From an uncultured Gemmataceae bacterium (lineage in GTDB: Bacteria > Planctomycetota > Planctomycetia > Gemmatales > Gemmataceae): a DNA stretch of 64,000 nt. The stretch is from positions 3,296,001-3,360,000 of the forward strand of contig CAVVPN010000003.1 in assembly GCA_963750165.1 (NCBI GenBank), written 5' to 3'. Below the pieces are notes generated by a model, which searched no databases, had not been told where the DNA came from, and was given only the letters and a program-made list of their open reading frames with translations. A program made the position numbers and the translations under genes. Positions 13,014 to 52,001 of the stretch are shown here, one piece after another (positions within the stretch are counted from its first letter, which is position 1; every line of letters starts with the position of its first letter).

Positions 13014-13112
13014 GGATTCACCACAAAGACACAAAGGACACAAAGAAGACAGAAGAAATTAATTTAATTTCTTCTGTCTTCTTTGTGTCCTTTGTGTCTT
13101 TGTGGTGAATCC
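13014..13112. repeat. long palindrome built of roughly 9-bp-periodic CACAAAG units
   Basis: 48-bp inverted arms around a 3-nt centre; related to 31739-31863, 34234-34334 and 47382-47494. Confidence 0.85.
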
Positions 13113-37382: not shown

Positions 37383-38111
37383 TTAGCGCGACGCGGTGCG
37401 CGTCAACGCCGGTTCGGCGAACTCGACGCGGACCTGCTGGCCGGCGGTGAGGATCGCCCGCGCCGTCTCCGTGTAGGTCTTGCCGTTGCGCACCACCTCG
37501 GCGCGGAGGTTGTAGAAGTACTGCTTGCCCGCATCCAGTCGCGGCGTCTTGAACGAACGCTTGTCGGACGTGAGTGGGCAGCGGACGTTATCGACGTAGA
37601 GCTTCGCGTCGGCCGGCAAATGCACGACGACCTCCGCCGGCCGGGCGCCGGTCCTGACCTCATCCTTGCGATTTTCCAGCTTCTTGAGCCGCTGGTCCAC
37701 GTCGCTCAGCAGGTCCACGATGCGCTTCATCGTGGCCGCATCCTGGGCACTCGCTCCCCCGACGGCCTGCGGTTGCGCCTGCGCGTAACTGGCCACCGCG
37801 ACCGGGTAGGAGTAAACCACCGATCCGCCGTAGCAGCCATAGCAGCCATAGCAGCCGTAGCAGCCGTAGCAGCCGCTGTAATATGCGGGGTAGTAGTAGC
37901 CGCCCCAGCAACCGCTGCAACCGTAGCAACCGTAGCAACCGTAGCAGCCGTAGCAGCCGAAGGCGTAGCCGCCGCCCCAGCAGCCGTGGCAACCGTAGCA
38001 GCCATAGCAGCCCCAACAACCGTGACAGCCCCAGCAGCCGTAGCAACCGTGCCCCCAGGACGGCGAGGTGGTCCCCGCCGCCAACATCGTCGCCAACACC
38101 ACGCTATACAT
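37383..38111 (-). CDS. TIGR03000 planctomycete domain protein with (Gly-Cys-Tyr/Trp/His)n repeats
   Basis: MYSVVLATML leader, 19 GCx triplets, C-terminal LPADAKLYVD...RSFKTPRL...YFYNLRAEV domain. Confidence 0.88.
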   Translation of the reverse strand: MYSVVLATMLAAGTTSPSWGHGCYGCWGCHGCWGCYGCYGCHGCWGGGYAFGCYGCYGCYGCYGCSGCWGGYYYPAYYSGCYGCYGCYGCYGCYGGSVVYSYPVAVASYAQAQPQAVGGASAQDAATMKRIVDLLSDVDQRLKKLENRKDEVRTGARPAEVVVHLPADAKLYVDNVRCPLTSDKRSFKTPRLDAGKQYFYNLRAEVVRNGKTYTETARAILTAGQQVRVEFAEPALTRTASR

Positions 38112-38380
38112 GCTTCTTGACCCTCCGTTACCAGAACGAGCCCGACCGCGCTGGCAGTACGGGCGAATTTGAGGTACACGTCCCCGAGGTTTAACCCACG
38201 TGAGCAAGTTGCAGAAGCTGTTCCCGGTTTGGGGAAAAGACAGACTTTTCCGGACAGGTTACCTCGAATTTACATTAAGAAGGGAAACAATGGGAGTCAA
38301 AGGCAAAATAGTTAAAATGGGCAAAAAGAGGGAGGGAGTCGTGCCGGTCGTGCGGCCGATGAGGTGGGGGGAAAAACCGC

Positions 38381-43194: not shown

Positions 43195-43758
43195 TCATTT
43201 CGCGTTGAGGGACACGATGATTATGCCGAAGATGATGCACCAACCGACCAGCCCGAGGGCGCCGAGCGCGGTGCCGACGATGCCGCAAATGCGGCCGGCG
43301 TTGGTGGAGCCTTCGCCGTCAGGGTCCATGCGGCCGGCGCGGATCTCGGTCAGGTCCGTGTTGCCCATCACCCAGGCGATCGGCCCCATGATGATCGAGG
43401 CCACCGTCCCGACGCCGTAACACCAGCCGAAGACCGCCGCGGCCACGATGCTGATGATGCCCAGCGTGAGCACGGCACTGCCGCGGTGCGGCATCAGGTC
43501 GCGGCGCGGTCCGGAGTCGCCGTAGCCGCCACGGTCGCGGTCCCAGTCCCGATCACGGTCGCGGCGGCTGTCGCGGTCGTCGGTCCAGCGGTCGTCGGAG
43601 TAGCGTCCGGGGGAGCCGGCGGGTGCGGTGGGCGCCGGGCCGCCGACCCGGGCGGTGAAGGTGGCGCCGCAGGTGGGGCACTGCACGTCCTGGCCGATCA
43701 GGCCCTCCGGCACCTGCAGTTTGCGCTTGCAACTGGGGCAGCTGATGATCTCTTGCAT
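43195..43758 (-). CDS. zinc-ribbon + DUF4190-like membrane protein
   Basis: CPSC...CPTC, R/D-rich linker, PHRG, two or three TM segments, AGRICGIVG. Confidence 0.8.
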   Translation of the reverse strand: MQEIISCPSCKRKLQVPEGLIGQDVQCPTCGATFTARVGGPAPTAPAGSPGRYSDDRWTDDRDSRRDRDRDWDRDRGGYGDSGPRRDLMPHRGSAVLTLGIISIVAAAVFGWCYGVGTVASIIMGPIAWVMGNTDLTEIRAGRMDPDGEGSTNAGRICGIVGTALGALGLVGWCIIFGIIIVSLNAK

Positions 43759-44142
43759 GCGTCCTCACTTGCCTCGCGTCCGGGGTTCACAGGTCGTCGA
43801 AGAGGACGCCGTTATTTCCGGAAGGGCTCGCCGGCAACCAGCCAGGAGAAGCCCCCCCTCTCCCTGATGTTCGTTGACCGAATGGTTTTGTTTGACCGGG
43901 GCCGAAAAGCCAACGAGTTATCCAGAGTGTATCCGTGGTTTTCACCGCTGAGAAGGGCCGGCCGCCGGTTTCTTGCCCGACTGCCGCCGCGGCGGCACCT
44001 TGTTTCGGCGCGCGGCGCGGTTAGAATAATCCTTCGTCCCTGACCAACCCGGGCGCCGGTCTCCACAGCACACGGACGTGTGTTCCGCCGCCCGGACGCG
44101 AAGCATTCCCAGACCTCGCCCTCTCTTCGACCCCCAGCGCGC

Positions 44143-47100
44143 ATGCACCGCGAAATCTCGCACACCGATTCGGCGTTCGCCCCGCAGCGCAACCTGGCGC
44201 TGTACCTGCTCACCGGCCTGCTCGGCCTGCTGATCGCCATCGACGGCTGGCCGCGGCTCGTCGAACTGTTCGGCTGGCGCGGCCTACCGACCTGGCCCAA
44301 TCAGATCGCCGGCTATCCCATCGCGCTGATCGCCGCGGTCATCGGCGGCGCTCGCATCCTGTTCACGTCGCTGGAGGGGCTGCTGGAAGGCCGCGTCGGC
44401 GCCGACCTGGCGCTGGCCATCGCCTGCATCGCCGCCCTGCTGCTCAACGACGAGAAGACCAACGAGGGCGCGTTGATCGCTGCGGAGATCGTCTTCATCG
44501 GCCTGTTCGGCGAGTGTCTGGAGGCGTTCACCTTCGACCGGACACAGCGGGCCATCCGCCGCATTCTGGAGGTGTGCCCGCGCCGCTGCTGGCTGCTGCG
44601 CGACGGTCAGGAGGTCCGCGTTCTGACTCAGGAACTGAAGGGCGGCGATGTGGTCGTGGTCAAGCCGGGGGCACGGGTGCCGGCCGATGGCGTGGTCCGC
44701 GACGGCCGTTCCGCCGTGGACGTGAGCGCCCTGACCGGCGAGAGCACGCCCGTGGACAAGGTGGCCGGCGACGAGGTGCTGGCCGGCTCGCTCAACCAGT
44801 TCGGGGCGCTGACCATCCGCTGCGACCGCGTCGGTGAGCAAACCGTCGTCGGCCGTGTGGTCGAGTTGACGGCGCGGGCGCTGAAGGACAAGGCCAGCAT
44901 TGAACGCACCGCCGACCGGCTGGCGCGCTACTTCCTGCCGGCGGTGCTGGGGCTGGCGCTGGTGACGTTCCTGGGGGCGCTGATCCTGGGCGGCGGCAAC
45001 CGCGACGAGGACTCGCTGCGCAACGCGGCCATGCCGGCGCTGGCGGTGCTGGTGGTGGCCTGCCCGTGCGCCCTGATCCTGGCGACGCCGGCCGCCATTA
45101 TTGCGGCGCTGGGCCGGCTGGCCGGTACGGGCGTGCTCATCAAGGGCGGTGCCGCGCTGGAGCGGCTGGCCGGCGTGACCGCGTTCGCCTTCGACAAGAC
45201 CGGCACGCTCACCGAAGGCAAGCTGACGCTCGGCGATGTCCACGGCCTGGCCGGCGTCAGTCCCGACGAACTGCTGCGCGTCGCCGCCGCCGCGGAGCAG
45301 CGCAGCGAACACCTGCTGGCCCGCCTCATCCTGCAGGAGGCCGCCGTCCGCAAGCTGGAGCCGGCGCCGCTGGAGGATTTTCAGGCTCACGCAGGCGCCG
45401 GCGTCACCGCCCACGTCGCCGGCCAGACGGTGGTTGTCGGCACACGACGGCTGCTGGAGGAGCAGGGGGTCGCGCTGCCGCCGGAAGCGCTGGCGCTGCT
45501 GGAGCAGCTGGACGCAAGCGGACAGACGGCCTTGCTCGTGGCCCGCGACGGCGTGGTGCTCGGCGCCATCGGCGCCCGTGACGAGGTGCGCGAGGACGCC
45601 GCCGTGGTCCTGGATGAGCTGCGGGCGCTGGGCATCAGTCAGATCGCGCTGCTGACCGGCGACCGGGCCGCCGTCGCCCGTGCCGTCGCTGCGAAGTTGA
45701 AGATCGACGACGTTCACGCGGAACTGCTGCCCCAGCAAAAGGCGGAACTGGTCGAAAAACTGGGGCAACGCGTGGCGATGGTCGGCGACGGCATCAACGA
45801 CGCCCCGGCGCTGGCCCGCGCTGACGTGGGCCTGGCCATCGGCGGCGGCACCGATGTGGCCGCGGAGGCGGGCGACCTGGTGCTCATGGGCGCCCCGCTG
45901 CGGCCGCTGCCGTTGCTGGTGCGGCTGTCGCGTGAGACGGTCAAGATCATCCGTCAGAACATTCTCTGGTTCGCGTTCGGCGTCAACGCGGTCGGCATTC
46001 TGTTGACGGCCTGGCTGTGGCCGCTGCTGCTGCCGAAGGACTGGCACAATCGGGCGCCCATCGCGGCGGTGCTGTACCATCAACTCGGCTCGCTGGCGGT
46101 GCTGCTGAATTCGATGCGGCTGCTGCGCTTCGAGCGCGGCGCCAGTCCGGGGCTGGAGCGCACCCGCGGCGTCTTCAAGCGCATCGACGCCTGGATGGAA
46201 ACGTATCTCAACGTAGACGACTTCTTCCACTGGGTCAGCCACGCCTGGCCGCGGTTGGCGGCGGTCGGCGTCGTGCTGCTGCTGGTCGGCTACGCCCTGA
46301 GCGGGTTGACGATGATCCAGCCCGACGAGCAGGGCATCCGTCGCCGCTTCGGCCGGCCGGTTGAGGATCTGGGGCCGGGGCTGTACTGGTGCTGGCCGTG
46401 GCCGGTCGAGGACGTGGTGCGTGAGCGCGTGGACCGCATTCGCACGGTCGAGATCGGCTTCCGCCTGGACCCGAAGAGCGGCCAGAAGGGAAGCACAGTA
46501 TTTTCCTGGTCGTCCTCGCACGGCGACGACGGCATCAAGCGCATCGCCGACGAGGCGGTGATGATTACCGGCGACGGCAACCTGGTGGAAGTGCAGGCGA
46601 GTGTGCGCTACCGCATTGTCGATCTGCACACGACGGCCTTCCAGGTCAACGAGGTGGACGAGATCGTGCGGGCCGCGGCGGAGGCGGTGCTGCGCGGCAT
46701 GGTGGCGGGCCGACCGTTCGCCGAACTGCTGACGCAGCAGCGCGGGGCGTTTCAGCGGGACGTGCTGGCGCGGCTGAAGGAGCGCTGCCGGGAGTACAAG
46801 CTCGGCATCGAACTGGACGGCTTTTCGCTGCACGATTTGCACCCGCCGCAGGAGGTGGTGCTGTCGTACTACGAGGTGACGCGGGCGATGGAGACGCGCG
46901 ACCGGCTCATCAACGAGGCCCAGGCGGACGCGCTGCGCAGCGTTCGCACCGCGGAGGCGCAAAAGACGAAGCTGGTGTTGATGGCCCAGGCGGAGCGCAA
47001 CGAGGCCATCCGCCAGGCGGAGGCGAACTACGCCACGTTCGCGCAGCGCAGCCAGGCCCGCAAGCGGCTGGGCTTCGACTACGAATGGGCCGAGTTCCTG

Positions 47101-47373
47101 GGTGCGGTCGATGGGCTGCTCGACGGCACCGACCCGGCCGCGGTGTGCGACCGCTACTGTGCCCGGCGCGCGCAGGCGCTGCAAACCCACGCGGCGCTGA
47201 TGGACTTCCGGCTGTACTGGGAGACGCTGAGCCGGTCGCTGACGGGCCGTGACCTGGTGCTGATCGACGCGGCAAAAATCACGGGCCGGCGGCAGCTGAT
47301 GTTCCTGGACCCGGAGCAATGGCGCATCCCGGTGCCGATCCTGATCCAGCCGGATCGCGAGACGTCGAGGTAG
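44143..47373 (+). CDS. P1B-type heavy-metal ATPase fused to a C-terminal HflK-like SPFH domain
   Basis: [26 protein letters not shown]; after an extra TM come [31 protein letters not shown] and DLHPPQEV (SPFH) in one uninterrupted frame. Confidence 0.92.
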
Positions 47374-47381
47374 AAATAATA

Positions 47382-47494
47382 TCACCACAAAGACACAAAG
47401 AGCACAAAGGAAAAGGCAAGGATAAAGAAATTGATTTAATCAATCCATTTTTTGCTTTGATTTCTCCTTTGTGCTCTTTGTGTCTTTGTGGTGA
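47382..47494. repeat. 9-bp-periodic palindrome (CACAAAG family) inside the ATPase-hflC operon
   Basis: TCACCACAAAGACACAAAGAGCACAAAGGA ... TCCTTTGTGCTCTTTGTGTCTTTGTGGTGA. Confidence 0.8.
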
Positions 47495-47522
47495 ATTCCT
47501 CTTCTCCTGTGAGGGTTCACCG

Positions 47523-48536
47523 ATGCGGATTTTCTGGTGCCTGCTCGCCGTGGTGCTGGGGCTGGTGGTGCTGTCGCAGTGCTACTTCACGGTCGATCCG
47601 ACCGAGTTCGTTTACGTGACGCAGTTCGGCGCCCCGGTGGCGGTCTACGACGGCGGCGCCCGCGACAGCGACGCCGGCCTGCACTGGCGCTGGCCGTGGC
47701 CGGTGCAGTCGGTGCAGCGCCTCGACCGCCGCCTGCAATACTTCGACCTGCCCGCCGCGGAACTGCTCACCAAGGACGCCGCCGGCGCCATCGACAAGAC
47801 GCTGACCGTCAAGGCGTACGTCTGCTGGCGCATCGTCGGCAAGGACACCGACGAGAACGGCGTCGATCGCTTCATCCGCCGCATGGGCAACGCCAAACAG
47901 GCCGAGGCGACGCTCGGCAAACGCCTCAACGGCGAACTCGGCGCCGTCATCGGCCAGATGCGCATGGACGACCTCATCAGCACCGACAGCGCCCGCGTGG
48001 AAACCAACCTGAAAGACCTGCGCGACCGCCTGCTCGGCAGTCTCCAGTCGCCGGCCCAGACCGAGTATGGCATCGAACTGGTCGATATTCGGCTGCGGCG
48101 CTTCAACCATCCGGCCCAGGTGCGCGAGGCGATCTTCGAGCGCATCCGCAGCGACCGCAACAAGCGCGTCGAGGAGTACCGCACGGAGGGCAAGCGCCTG
48201 GCCGACAACATTCGCAGCAACGCCAAGAAGAAGGTCGATGACCTGCTCGCCCAGGCGAAGTCCGAGGCCCGCATCCTCAAGGGCGAGGCGGAGGTCGAGG
48301 CCGACCGGCTGCGCAACCTGGCCAACCTGCAGGATCCCGAGTTTTACGTCTTCCTGAAGAAGCTGGAGAAGATGCAGAGCATCCTCGGCGAGAACAAGAC
48401 CCTGCTGCTGCTCTCGACGCACCGGCCCATCTTCGACCTGCTGTTCGCGCCGCCGCGGCCCGGGTTGAACGGCCCCGTCATGCCGCAGCAGCCGCCCGCT
48501 CCGCCGGCGCAGCCGAAGAAGGAGGGCGGCGCATGA
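47523..48536 (+). CDS. hflC: HflC-like SPFH protein
   Basis: N-terminal TM, VTQFG, GLHWRWPWPVQSV, LLTKD, IFERIRSDR, DPEFYVFLKKLE. Confidence 0.85.
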   Translation: MRIFWCLLAVVLGLVVLSQCYFTVDPTEFVYVTQFGAPVAVYDGGARDSDAGLHWRWPWPVQSVQRLDRRLQYFDLPAAELLTKDAAGAIDKTLTVKAYVCWRIVGKDTDENGVDRFIRRMGNAKQAEATLGKRLNGELGAVIGQMRMDDLISTDSARVETNLKDLRDRLLGSLQSPAQTEYGIELVDIRLRRFNHPAQVREAIFERIRSDRNKRVEEYRTEGKRLADNIRSNAKKKVDDLLAQAKSEARILKGEAEVEADRLRNLANLQDPEFYVFLKKLEKMQSILGENKTLLLLSTHRPIFDLLFAPPRPGLNGPVMPQQPPAPPAQPKKEGGA

Positions 48537-49579
48537 AATACGTGCTGTATGGGCTGCTGGCGTTATTGCTGCTGTCGCTGCTGACGGGCGTGACGCAGGT
48601 GCAACCGGGCGAGCGCACGGTCATCTGGCGCTGCGGCCGGCTGCTGGACGAGAAGCCGGGGCCGGGCCTGTACGTCGGCCTGCCGTGGGGCCTTGACCGT
48701 GTGGAGCGCGTGCCCATCGAACTGGTGCGGCGCGTGACGGTTGGCTACGAGCCGCGGCTGACGGACGAGGACGGCGTGACGATGCCCACCGGCCAGATGC
48801 TGACCGGCGATCACAACCTGGTGAACGTGCAGGTGGTGCTCGACTACAACGTCATTGAGGCGGAGGTGGAGCAGTTCGTGGTGCAGCAGGACGGCGTGGA
48901 CGCCCTGGTCAACCGGGCGGCGGAGACGGCCCTGGCGGAGTGGGTCGCCGGCCGCACCGTCGATGAGGTGCTGCTGCACGGCAAGCGAACGCTGCCGCCC
49001 TGGCTGGTGCAGCAGACGCAGCAGCGCATCGGCCCCTATCGGCTGGGCATCCGCATCCAGGGCGCTTACGTGACGCACCTGTATCCGCCGGCGGACGTGA
49101 AGCCGTACTTCGACGAGGTGACGCGAGCGCAGACGGAGATGCAGACGGACATCGTCAAGGCAGAGCAGGCCGCGAGCAGCCTCTGGCGCACGGCCGAGGC
49201 GGAGAAGTACGACATTGACATTCAGGTGACCTCGTACCGGCGCGAGCAGCAGCTGCTGGCGGCGGCGGATGTCGAGACGTTCGAGAAGCGGCTGGCCGCG
49301 TACCGCACGTTTCAGCGGAGCGACCCGGCGCTGGCCTGGTGCGCGGGCGGCGTCGCCGGGCTGGCGGCGCCCGGCGGCGGCGGACCGCTGGCCGGCGCCG
49401 CGGCGCTGGCGCACGGCGGCGGCGCCGGCAGCCGGTATCTCAACGCGCTGTGGTGGGACGAGATGAGCCGGCTGTACGGTCGGCTGCGGACCACCGGCCG
49501 CATTGATTTGCTGGACAATTACCTGAGCGGCGCGGGCCTGACGATCACGCAGGTGCCGACGCTGCCGAAGCGCAAGTGA
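48533..49579 (+). CDS. HflK-like SPFH protein
   Basis: PGPGLYVGLPWG, MLTGDHNLVNVQ, PPADVKPYFDEV; ATGA overlap with hflC. Confidence 0.82.
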   Translation: MKYVLYGLLALLLLSLLTGVTQVQPGERTVIWRCGRLLDEKPGPGLYVGLPWGLDRVERVPIELVRRVTVGYEPRLTDEDGVTMPTGQMLTGDHNLVNVQVVLDYNVIEAEVEQFVVQQDGVDALVNRAAETALAEWVAGRTVDEVLLHGKRTLPPWLVQQTQQRIGPYRLGIRIQGAYVTHLYPPADVKPYFDEVTRAQTEMQTDIVKAEQAASSLWRTAEAEKYDIDIQVTSYRREQQLLAAADVETFEKRLAAYRTFQRSDPALAWCAGGVAGLAAPGGGGPLAGAAALAHGGGAGSRYLNALWWDEMSRLYGRLRTTGRIDLLDNYLSGAGLTITQVPTLPKRK

Positions 49580-49609: not shown

Positions 49610-50047
49610 ATGCGGAAGGTATCGGCCTGTATGGTGGCGGTCTGTCTGGTGGCGCTGGCCGCGGTCGCCTGGGGCAGCCCCCAGGACGCATCGAAGATCG
49701 ACGGGACGTGGACGGTCGTCGGGGGCTCCTCCGACGGCCAAAAAATCCCCGAGCAAAGCCTCAAGGAAACCCCGGTCACGATGGAACTCAAGAACGGCAA
49801 ATACACCCTCTTCGTGGCGGGGAAAAAGTTGGAGGCGGGAACGTATCGCCTCGACATCAACAAGAAGCCGGCCACCATTGACCTGAGCCTCACCGCGGGC
49901 GCCGACAAGGGCAAGACCCTGCTTGGCATTTTCAAGCTGGCAAGCGGCCAGCTGACCATCGCCATGAGCAAGGCCGGCGTCAAGCTGCGGCCCAAAAACT
50001 TCGAGCCCGCCGACGGGATCGACACGTTGGAACTGAAGCGGAAGTGA
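49610..50047 (+). CDS. exported TIGR03067 planctomycete domain protein
   Basis: [38 protein letters not shown]. Confidence 0.88.
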   Translation: MRKVSACMVAVCLVALAAVAWGSPQDASKIDGTWTVVGGSSDGQKIPEQSLKETPVTMELKNGKYTLFVAGKKLEAGTYRLDINKKPATIDLSLTAGADKGKTLLGIFKLASGQLTIAMSKAGVKLRPKNFEPADGIDTLELKRK

Positions 50048-50614: not shown

Positions 50615-52001
50615 GGCAACGTTTCAAAATTAATCCGCAGTTCCCTTCTACAATAACCCTGGCCCAACCGGGGGCCTGGTTTGGAAGGGAGGCAGAGCCG
50701 TGGACATCCACCAATGCCAATGCCCTCACTGCCGACAAGGTGCGGACCACCCCGAACGCGCCCTCCATTACCGGCTCAACCTTCTCCTGAGCCGGTTGGA
50801 TGAGCACCAACGCCGGTGGTTGGCAGCCTGGGAGTCCCAGAAGGTCGGCCGCGGCGGCGACCGCCTACTGTCCCTCATCACCGGCCTGAACGTGGAAACC
50901 ATCCGGCGCGGTCGCCGGGAACTCGAGGACTCCCTGCGGGACTGCCCCCCGGATCGCATCCGCCGGCCCGGGGCAGGACGGCCCGCTGTGAAAAAAAAGT
51001 GCCGGGCCTCATGAACGCTTTGAGGCAGCTGGTTGAGGAGCAGACCGCCGGCAGCCCGCAAACCTGTCAGAAGTGGGTGCGCCACAGCGTCGCCTACCTG
51101 AGCACGCGGTTGCAAGGCCAAGGCTTCGCCGTCAGCCCCGCCACGGTCTATCGCCTGTTGGACGACCTGGGCTATTCGCTCAAGGCCAACCGCAAGCGCT
51201 TCACCGGCCCGCCTCACCCAGACCGGGACCGGCAGTTCGCGTACATCGCCGGGCAGCGGCGCCGCTTCGCCATCCTCGGCCAGCCGGTGATCAGCGTGGA
51301 CAGCAAGAAAAAGGAGTTGATCGGCAACTTCAAGAATGCAGGGCGGCAGTGGTGCCGGCGCGCGACGGAGGTCAACGCCCACGACTTCCTGGACGACGCC
51401 TTGGGCCGGGCCGTCCCCTACGGGGTCTACGACGTGCGCCAGGACCGCGGCCATGTCTACGTGGGGTTGTCCGCCGACACCGCGGCGTTCGCGGGGGACG
51501 TGATCGGCCGGTGGTGGCGCGGCGAGGGACGGCTGTGGTACCCGCAGGCCGACGAGTTGCTGATCCTGTGCGACGCGGGCGGGAGCAACAGTTGCCGCGT
51601 GCGGTTGTGGAAACAGCGCCTCCAGGAGGAGTTGGCCGACCGCTGGGGGCTGTGGGTGACGGTGTGCCATTACCCGCGGGGGGCGTCGAAGTGGAACCCG
51701 GTGGAGCACCGGCTGTTCAGCCGCATCAGCGTCAACTGGGCGGGGGAGCCGCTGCGAACCGTGGAGACGCTGTTGGCCTGCATCCGGGGCACGGAGACGG
51801 ACGCCGGTTGGGCGGTACGTGCGACGTTGCTGGACGCGGAGTACGCGAAGGGGGTCAAGGTGCCGGACGCAGAAATGCAGACGTGGCGCCTCCAAAGGCA
51901 TGCCGTCTGCCCCAGTTGGAATTACACCATCAAGCCACGTTGGACAATATTCTAACATCAGCACCCAGGTGTAAGCTGCGGACTAATTTTGAACGGCTGC
52001 C
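50615..52001 (+). mobile_element. complete ISAzo13-family insertion sequence (1387 bp)
   Basis: 26-bp imperfect TIRs GGCAACGTTTCAAAATTAATCCGCAG / GGCAGCCGTTCAAAATTAGTCCGCAG; TTA duplicated at 50612-50614 and 52002-52004. Confidence 0.93.
50700..51955 (+). CDS. ISAzo13-family DDE transposase, two ORFs joined by a -1 shift at A8G (50991-50999)
   Basis: ISVDSKKKELIGNFKNAG, CDAGGSN, SKWNPVEHRLFS, WNYTI. Confidence 0.92.

Follow-up and report, generated by a model that had tools for sequence, protein, structure and literature searches.

A 64,000-nucleotide stretch of an uncultured Gemmataceae genome (GCA_963750165.1, contig CAVVPN010000003.1, positions 3,296,001 to 3,360,000; hereafter the window, numbered from its first nucleotide) carries a P1B-type metal ATPase fused to an HflK-like SPFH domain, followed by an hflC-like gene and a second hflK-like gene. 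The fusion occupies a single open frame on the + strand (window 44143-47373; 1076 amino acids plus stop, 1077 codons) with TGES at residue 198, CPC at 307, DKTGT at 351, GDGIND at 548, and YHQLGS at 645. Pfam assigned E1-E2_ATPase (146-327), Hydrolase (346-561), and Band_7 (724-930) but no HMA domain, and the score against TIGR01525 was 542.8 (cut-off 346). Hydropathy gave eight peaks, missing M6 and ending with a peak at 698-716 ahead of the SPFH domain, and an AlphaFold model (pLDDT 77, pTM 0.55) showed, in order, the eight P1B helices, a linker of two helices (pLDDT about 60), one further helix (the ninth), and the SPFH domain with a long coiled helix behind it. P1B pumps were the top matches of a fold search with this model, and the closest solved relative of the tail, termed K1, was Escherichia coli HflK (E 6.5e-21). 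The hflC-like gene begins 149 nt after the fusion and overlaps the second hflK-like gene, K2, by ATGA; its product lay just above the TIGR01932 cut-off (136 against 134.4). The transmembrane (TM) anchor, Band_7 domain, and coiled coil of the SPFH/HflK-HflC superfamily were present in the locus proteins. A sequence-only reading made earlier had described this arrangement, including the 1077-codon frame, the missing N-terminal metal-binding domain, the extra TM helix, and the overlapping downstream genes, and motifs, Pfam, hydropathy, model, and coordinates bore it out.

Table 1. Features of the pump-SPFH unit (window positions; residues refer to the fusion protein)
Feature	Position	Strand	Remarks
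Candidate sigma-70-like housekeeping promoter	44000..44027	+	-35 TTGTTT / -10 TAGAAT; approximate coordinates
P1B ATPase part	44143..46128	+	aa 1-662; 8 TM helices; no N-terminal metal-binding domain
Pump residues			CPC 307-309; N615 in M5; H646-Q-x-x-S650 in M6
Cytoplasmic two-helix linker and ninth TM helix	46129..46302	+	aa 663-720; from hydropathy and AlphaFold model
K1, HflK-like SPFH domain and coiled coil	46303..47373	+	aa 721-1076; W789-x3-H793 loop, D898-x-H900-P-P
Intergenic hairpin, REP-like, 30-bp perfect arms	47382..47494	.	genome-wide repeat, not unit-specific
HflC-like SPFH protein	47523..48536	+	337 aa; one N-terminal TM helix; start ATG 47523
K2, second HflK-like SPFH protein	48533..49579	+	348 aa; no transporter; without the K1 histidines

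The fusion is not an assembly artefact, since Band_7 and Hydrolase domains occurred in all of the best 120 of 7833 homologues (7996 candidates scored), with E1-E2 also in 113 of these 120 and several of them labeled Gemmataceae. P1B pumps end in the cytoplasm, and a ninth helix following that terminus would carry the SPFH domain into the periplasm, as in HflK, and to the exit side of the pump.

The distribution of the genes supported that the pump and the three SPFH genes behave as one unit. Among 121 genomes of the order Gemmatales (Gemmataceae and kin) the fusion was found in 116 as a match to the pump-SPFH junction (102 in open frames of at least 1000 amino acids, the others in shorter frames of which some were inspected), hflC in 112, and K2 in 114. 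Comparison of the three presence tables gave 111 genomes with all three genes, five with none (G306, G360, G373, G388, and G400, all of which kept FtsH), and five fragmented drafts of 80-920 contigs with one or two missing. Where both fusion and hflC were present (112 genomes) they were adjacent in 74, separated by 53 kb to 6.9 Mb on one contig in seven, and on different contigs in 31. Several complete genomes hold the trio at sites megabases from one another; it occupied three separate places in G324, G326, and G330, in the last at 1.24, 6.26, and 3.43 Mb. That the genes persist together after the operon broke up speaks for a functioning complex and against hitch-hiking, with the qualification that the genomes are related and do not represent independent events. 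No signal emerged for substitution of a PCP-type pump for the fusion (3/5 fusion-less versus 41/116 other genomes).

A survey of gene neighborhoods showed that the fusion with its K1-C-K2 layout recurs across three phyla. An HflK-like match was present in 133 of 301 genomes sampled from the phylum, and 60 stretches were selected for inspection, not randomly but according to score and frame length. Twenty stretches with short hits, together with L178, held ordinary two-gene hflK-hflC pairs, and the remainder were mostly K1-C-K2 units or parts of them in which K1 carried an N-terminal P1B pump (9), an ArsP permease (PF03773; 13), a CDF transporter (PF01545; 3), or an unnamed membrane domain (13, of which 11 had a P1B gene of its own nearby in the locus). 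K1 is fused to three unrelated transporter families, P1B, CDF, and ArsP, the latter two being exporter families by annotation; the unnamed domain of unfused K1, considered as a possible decayed CDF, matched CDF with an hhalign probability of 27%. The P1B fusion was identified in 8/201 Acidobacteriota and 4/201 Verrucomicrobiota genomes, with the K1-C-K2 layout, CPC, and HQxxS in 12/12, and in 0/151 genomes of a deltaproteobacterial phylum; three fusion clusters in the ESM Atlas were likewise most frequent in the same three phyla. An unfused four-gene form (K1-C-K2 plus a P1B gene) was present on plasmids of Klebsiella, Paraburkholderia, Rhizobium, and Burkholderia, and the CDF-fused form on an Aquibium plasmid. 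A profile scan of genome contigs with the full-length alignment returned 77/80 loci with the pump only, an ordinary P1B, which were kept as outgroup. Adjacent genes fuse easily, which would suit a neutral fusion of operon neighbors without physical partnership, and this explanation is barely credible given retention of the fusion in three phyla, three different transporters joined to K1, and co-retention of the genes after they had separated.

Several features of these relatives are recorded separately. A small anchored gene followed K2 in 15 loci outside the order (e.g., L218:9875-10336, L015:3531-4046, and L223:9720-10196); its product had no Pfam family beyond a weak DUF4878 match, and it was not found in the source genome (G000; best E 0.003) and gave one weak match among 61 genomes of the order. 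In CDF-fused K1 (L020, L022, L034, and L186; alignment A4) the H-x3-D pair was kept in both site helices, presumably as a zinc-type site, and the SPFH domain sits where the cytoplasmic dimer domain usually is. Metal-related neighbors accompanied some units (L023:7353-8612, L031, L032:3500-4087, L034, and L223:3903-4655), namely an ArsP permease, PCu(A)C together with a metal ABC permease, a DUF4198 protein, a ZntA-type pump alongside PCu(A)C and SCO, and a His-motif membrane protein without family match, which we take to resemble Ni/Co transporters.

The fused pump has the features of a P1B ATPase (TGE, DKTGT, GDGxND, CPx in M4, and the P1B fold), and in the 113 full-length homologues CPC, DKTG[TS], GDGxND, and [YF]HQxxS were present in 113/113 and TGE in 112, with a CxxC within the first 60 amino acids in 1/113. 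P1B-1 (Cu+, CopA) pumps carry YN in M5 and M-x3-S in M6, and P1B-2 (ZntA) pumps carry Lys in M5 and Asp in M6; these signatures were checked against the E. coli proteins. The fused pump keeps the CopA Asn in M5 without the CopA Tyr or the ZntA Lys, and H646 aligned to the M6 metal-ligand position held by Met in CopA and Asp in ZntA. Assignment to P1B-1 was rejected on the absent Tyr, the His in place of Met, and a placement outside the Cu clade, and the “Cu+-exporting” label of homologues in databases is unsupported. P1B-2 was rejected with both the ZntA Lys and Asp missing and a position apart from Zn pumps in the tree, and P1B-6 (FezB) because it needs D[Y/F]SCA and HNxxT where the fused pump has CPC and HQxxS. 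Compared by motif with the CtpC type (P1B-6-like; CPC in M4 and HN in M6), the fused pumps have CPC and the His but Gln or Glu in place of Asn. In the P1B tree the fused pumps of the three phyla grouped together (SH-aLRT 97), separate from the Cu and Zn pumps and from the HmtA type, which is a supported group of its own (98). The Cys2-His site suggests a soft metal, without naming which.

Phylogenetic analysis of the SPFH proteins was based on a FastTree tree of 128 rows with Gemmatales thinned to about a third, omitting L035, L036, L100, L121, L137, and L146 (frameshifts or duplication) and frames below 200 amino acids, and with L178 relabeled as ordinary. Ordinary HflK (94) and K2 (83) each fell on one side of a branch, with K1 types outside both. 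Scores against TIGR01933 were 134 for K1 and 96.9 for K2 (cut-off 159.4), compared to 298 and 279 for two ordinary planctomycete HflK; the K2 of an ArsP unit passed with 221, so the cut-off is no clean separator of the groups. Neither the TIGR01933 score of an FtsH-modulating HflK nor grouping with two-gene hflK was found for K1 and K2 (FastTree support). Two histidines set K1 apart. A His before the PP/AP turn (H900 in the fusion) was present in 65/67 K1 but 0/23 ordinary HflK and 0/67 K2. The W-x3-H motif, whose loop begins just past the position of E. coli R141/E142, occurred in 35/35 ATPase-fused, 3/4 CDF-fused, and 13/15 unnamed-TM K1 (51/54 non-ArsP K1 overall), in 11/12 Acidobacteriota and Verrucomicrobiota fusions, and in 0/90 other K proteins.

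The E. coli HflK/HflC-FtsH structures (PDB 7vhp, 7vhq, 7wi3, 9cz1, 9cz2, and 9paw) share with the unit the TM-SPFH-coiled-coil build and the pairing of K- and C-type genes, and differ in having two genes instead of three, no K fused to an eight-helix pump, and none of the K1 histidines. In HflK/C cages, which bind FtsH, K and C subunits alternate in a 24-mer. When closed, the E. coli cage surrounds four FtsH hexamers with its 24 subunits, each FtsH subunit contributing two helices (bioRxiv 2024.08.09.604662). R141/E142 contact FtsH inside the cage, and R141 and R185 matter for FtsH pull-down (10.1101/2025.07.21.662073); the “Arg191” named in bioRxiv 2024.08.09.604662 is Ala in E. coli HflK, and R141/E142/R185 were used instead. 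Residue searches in PMC13220708 and PMC13097134 found nothing. K1 has R767, T768, and R843 at the positions of R141, E142, and R185, which vary among ordinary HflK too: Arg at the R141 and R185 positions was present in 6 and 18 of 22 ordinary HflK and in 43 and 27 of 67 K2. A complex prediction of K1 (696-1040), HflC, and K2 scored 0.01 and, run without controls, counts neither way.

The source genome, which is 93% complete, contains five Band_7 matches, namely the trio and two stomatin-like genes, and E. coli HflK and HflC as queries matched this locus only. Two membrane FtsH genes (C3:670453 and C4:483851) lie far from the unit; the lack of an ftsH in the operon, stressed in the sequence-only reading, stands as an observation and is uninformative because in E. 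coli, too, about 1.08 Mb lie between hflKC and ftsH. The strongest rival explanation is an FtsH-linked quality-control cage, in which the trio would bind FtsH via K1 or K2 and bring the protease to the transporter or shield it from the protease, with proteolysis setting the pump level, and which may double as the only HflKC of the cell. This agrees with the retained R767 and R843, the TIGR01932-positive HflC, the lack of another HflK/C in G000, and the closer position of K2 to ordinary HflK than most K1, and we rate it as unlikely on account of the loss of hflC and K2 wherever the fusion is gone (5/5) with FtsH staying, the presence of FtsH in all five single-contig genomes of the class without a match to the K1 query, the ordinary hflKC pair found beside the trio in G243 and G063 (other planctomycetes), and the K1 histidines, which it leaves unexplained.

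The fused pump is the sole non-CopA P1B ATPase of G000, the other being one CopA, and searches of this 93% complete genome gave neither a CDF nor an ArsP. The CopA-type gene (C4:76680-78703, - strand, outside the window) matched E. coli CopA partly in one frame and partly in another, the change falling near 78225 and reflecting either a frameshift or an assembly error. In another place outside the window (C3:969389-975193, - strand) about 2.4 kb separate a stomatin-like SPFH gene from a proton-pump-like P-type ATPase gene downstream of it on the same strand, a second and loose SPFH/P-type pairing.

Upstream of the fusion, relatives have TTGAC at the -35 position of the candidate promoter, and the pattern, picked post hoc, occurred in 10/25 upstream regions against a mean of 0.7 and a maximum of 4 in shuffles; a consensus promoter scanner gave 0 sites. 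No operator palindrome was shared by 25 upstream regions of the units in the order, and no flanking gene, metal-sensor genes included, was conserved in 51 loci. The repeat hairpin in the gap between fusion and hflC could alter the subunit ratio; its family comprises 82 arm matches of at least 20 nt and 34 inverted pairs across the genome, with another copy at window 13018-13110. The unit is flanked by a TIGR03067 protein (49610-50047) and a divergent zinc-ribbon/DUF4190-like membrane protein (43195-43758), neither of which is kept beside it in relatives. A transposase-like frame, presumably ISAzo13-like, lies 1.2 kb downstream (50816-51955), and window 37383-38207 holds a cysteine-rich frame with many Cys-Tyr-Gly repeats.

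The sequence-only reading had likened the pump to mycobacterial CtpC, which shares CPC and the M6 His and depends on a scaffold, PacL (PMC9374683). The likeness has limits: PacL, a small DUF1490 protein of the cytoplasm, is not fused to its pump, CtpC foci form without flotillin whereas the fused pump is joined to an SPFH protein, and the HN and N-terminal metal-binding domain of CtpC contrast with HQ and no such domain in the fused pump (PMC9374683). FezB of the ferrosome resembles the fused pump in lacking a classical N-terminal metal-binding domain, in its M6 His, and in its link to a compartment, and differs in D[Y/F]SCA, HNxxT, six helices, and a lipid-bounded organelle as against CPC, HQxxS, and eight helices (bioRxiv 2020.01.10.902569). 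The hmtA cluster of Pseudomonas aeruginosa (PA2439-PA2434; PaFlo5/6/7 and HmtA), with HflK, HflC, a third SPFH gene, and a P1B ATPase, is a closer precedent than CtpC. There the pump is a separate gene, the likeness is one of gene layout and not of PA2435-2439 sequence, and look-alike unfused loci encode a pump with CPC and HN in a clade separate from the fused pumps; the cluster is patchy and mobile in Pseudomonas (PMC13086221), compared to the near-universal fusion in Gemmatales. It is zinc-responsive: in a znuA mutant hflK rose 9.0-fold, hflC 10.6-fold, PA2437 14.4-fold, and hmtA 5.6-fold (PMC4542158), Zur shifts the PA2439 promoter (PMC8531726), and the proteins rise in zinc depletion (PMC11761036). 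Deletion of paFlo5-7 gave about 20% less biofilm (PMC13086221), and that paper never uses the words “ATPase,” “hmtA,” or “fusion” and has no section on a metal assay. Searches of mostly open-access literature, main texts only, turned up no publication describing a P1B-SPFH fusion; domain surveys of P1B pumps in supplements might include it. The unfused cousin is listed in print and unexplained, and the fusion is a real, conserved, and unstudied HflK/C variant.

Two further readings concern what the pump does. In a plain efflux platform, the SPFH ring would cluster and stabilize a zinc-type detoxification pump as PacL does CtpC, with no hand-off. The standing of the pump as the only non-CopA P1B of a genome in which neither CDF nor ArsP was found, the exporter annotation of the alternative partners, and the CtpC-like CPC and M6 His fit this reading; the near-absence of N-terminal metal-binding motifs, the lack of a conserved sensor gene or operator beside the unit, the missing ZntA residues, and the rise of the P. 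aeruginosa unit under zinc lack rather than excess make it distinctly unlikely. Alternatively, the pump might import Zn or Cu with the His-lined cage gathering periplasmic metal, as HmtA has been described second-hand as a Zn/Cu importer (PMC4542158, PMC8456098). Zur binding of the hmtA cluster and histidines as suited to a collector as to an acceptor are compatible with uptake. Set against it are the separate clade of the fused pumps, the CDF partners, which indicate export, and the rule that P1B pumps are exporters, and we consider it highly improbable.

The reading we favor, to which we give about an even chance, is that a dedicated HflK/C-type cage tethers a divalent-metal pump and catches its metal or hands it on. 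The three chains would form one periplasmic cage in which HflC alternates with K-type subunits, some being K1 tethering an ATPase and the rest pump-free K2 spacers. The 48 FtsH helices in the closed E. coli cage would correspond to room for about six eight-helix pumps, not twelve, which would explain K2. The ATPase would move a soft divalent metal, most likely Zn2+ and possibly Co, Fe, or Cu, from the cytoplasm to the periplasmic face, where H793 and H900 of K1, with D898, would catch it and pass it on. Housekeeping metal handling or delivery would fit better than inducible detoxification given the near-universal single copies, the plain promoter-like site, and the lack of an operator or sensor gene. 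The original proposal that an HflKC-type cage had been repurposed for a metal pump thus gained from the co-retained unit, the position of K1 and K2 outside ordinary HflK, and the three transporter families, whereas metal storage in the compartment, also suggested at the outset, received no support.

A number of observations weigh against a dedicated cage. FtsH could still be the partner, since 24 and 31 of the 35 fused K1 keep Arg at the equivalents of R141 and R185 and the trio comprises the only HflK/C-type genes found in G000, both FtsH proteins of which give a weak FtsH_ext match. That no other HflK/C was found is one half of the outcome that the sequence-only reading had named as refuting its proposal. 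K1 types fall in several groups and no single clade, W-x3-H is missing from all 13 ArsP fusions, and the histidines of K1 could simply mark a clade by descent, kin not being independent. The low-confidence linker means that the pump could lie outside the ring, and no conserved metal-enzyme neighbor or operator was found in the order (51 loci; 25 upstream regions). The sister relationship of fused and HmtA-type pumps, a joint clade absent from the tree, is neither shown nor rejected (p-AU 0.119), so that gene architecture alone links the fused pumps to zinc, and in one study hmtA mRNA was not repressed by zinc (PMC8531726).

The analysis adds order-wide counts of co-retention and co-loss, K1-specific histidines, and the retained FtsH-contact arginines, and it defines a P1B group (CPC, Asn, and HQxxS) that is commonly mislabeled as copper exporter. 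The bacterial cage structures described in bioRxiv 2024.08.09.604662 hold FtsH; here the client is written into a cage subunit in three unrelated transporter families, providing a natural test of how such a cage acts on a defined non-protease client and a specific hypothesis to account for the presence of hflK and hflC, so far unexplained, next to hmtA in P. aeruginosa. A wider generalization, which we offer tentatively and find doubtful, is that a branch of HflK/C swapped its protease for a covalently attached transporter (P1B, CDF, or ArsP), such that a His-lined periplasmic chamber holds exported metal and loads clients as a core machine of the Gemmatales. If true, a protein-walled metal-delivery compartment would be a housekeeping machine of this order.

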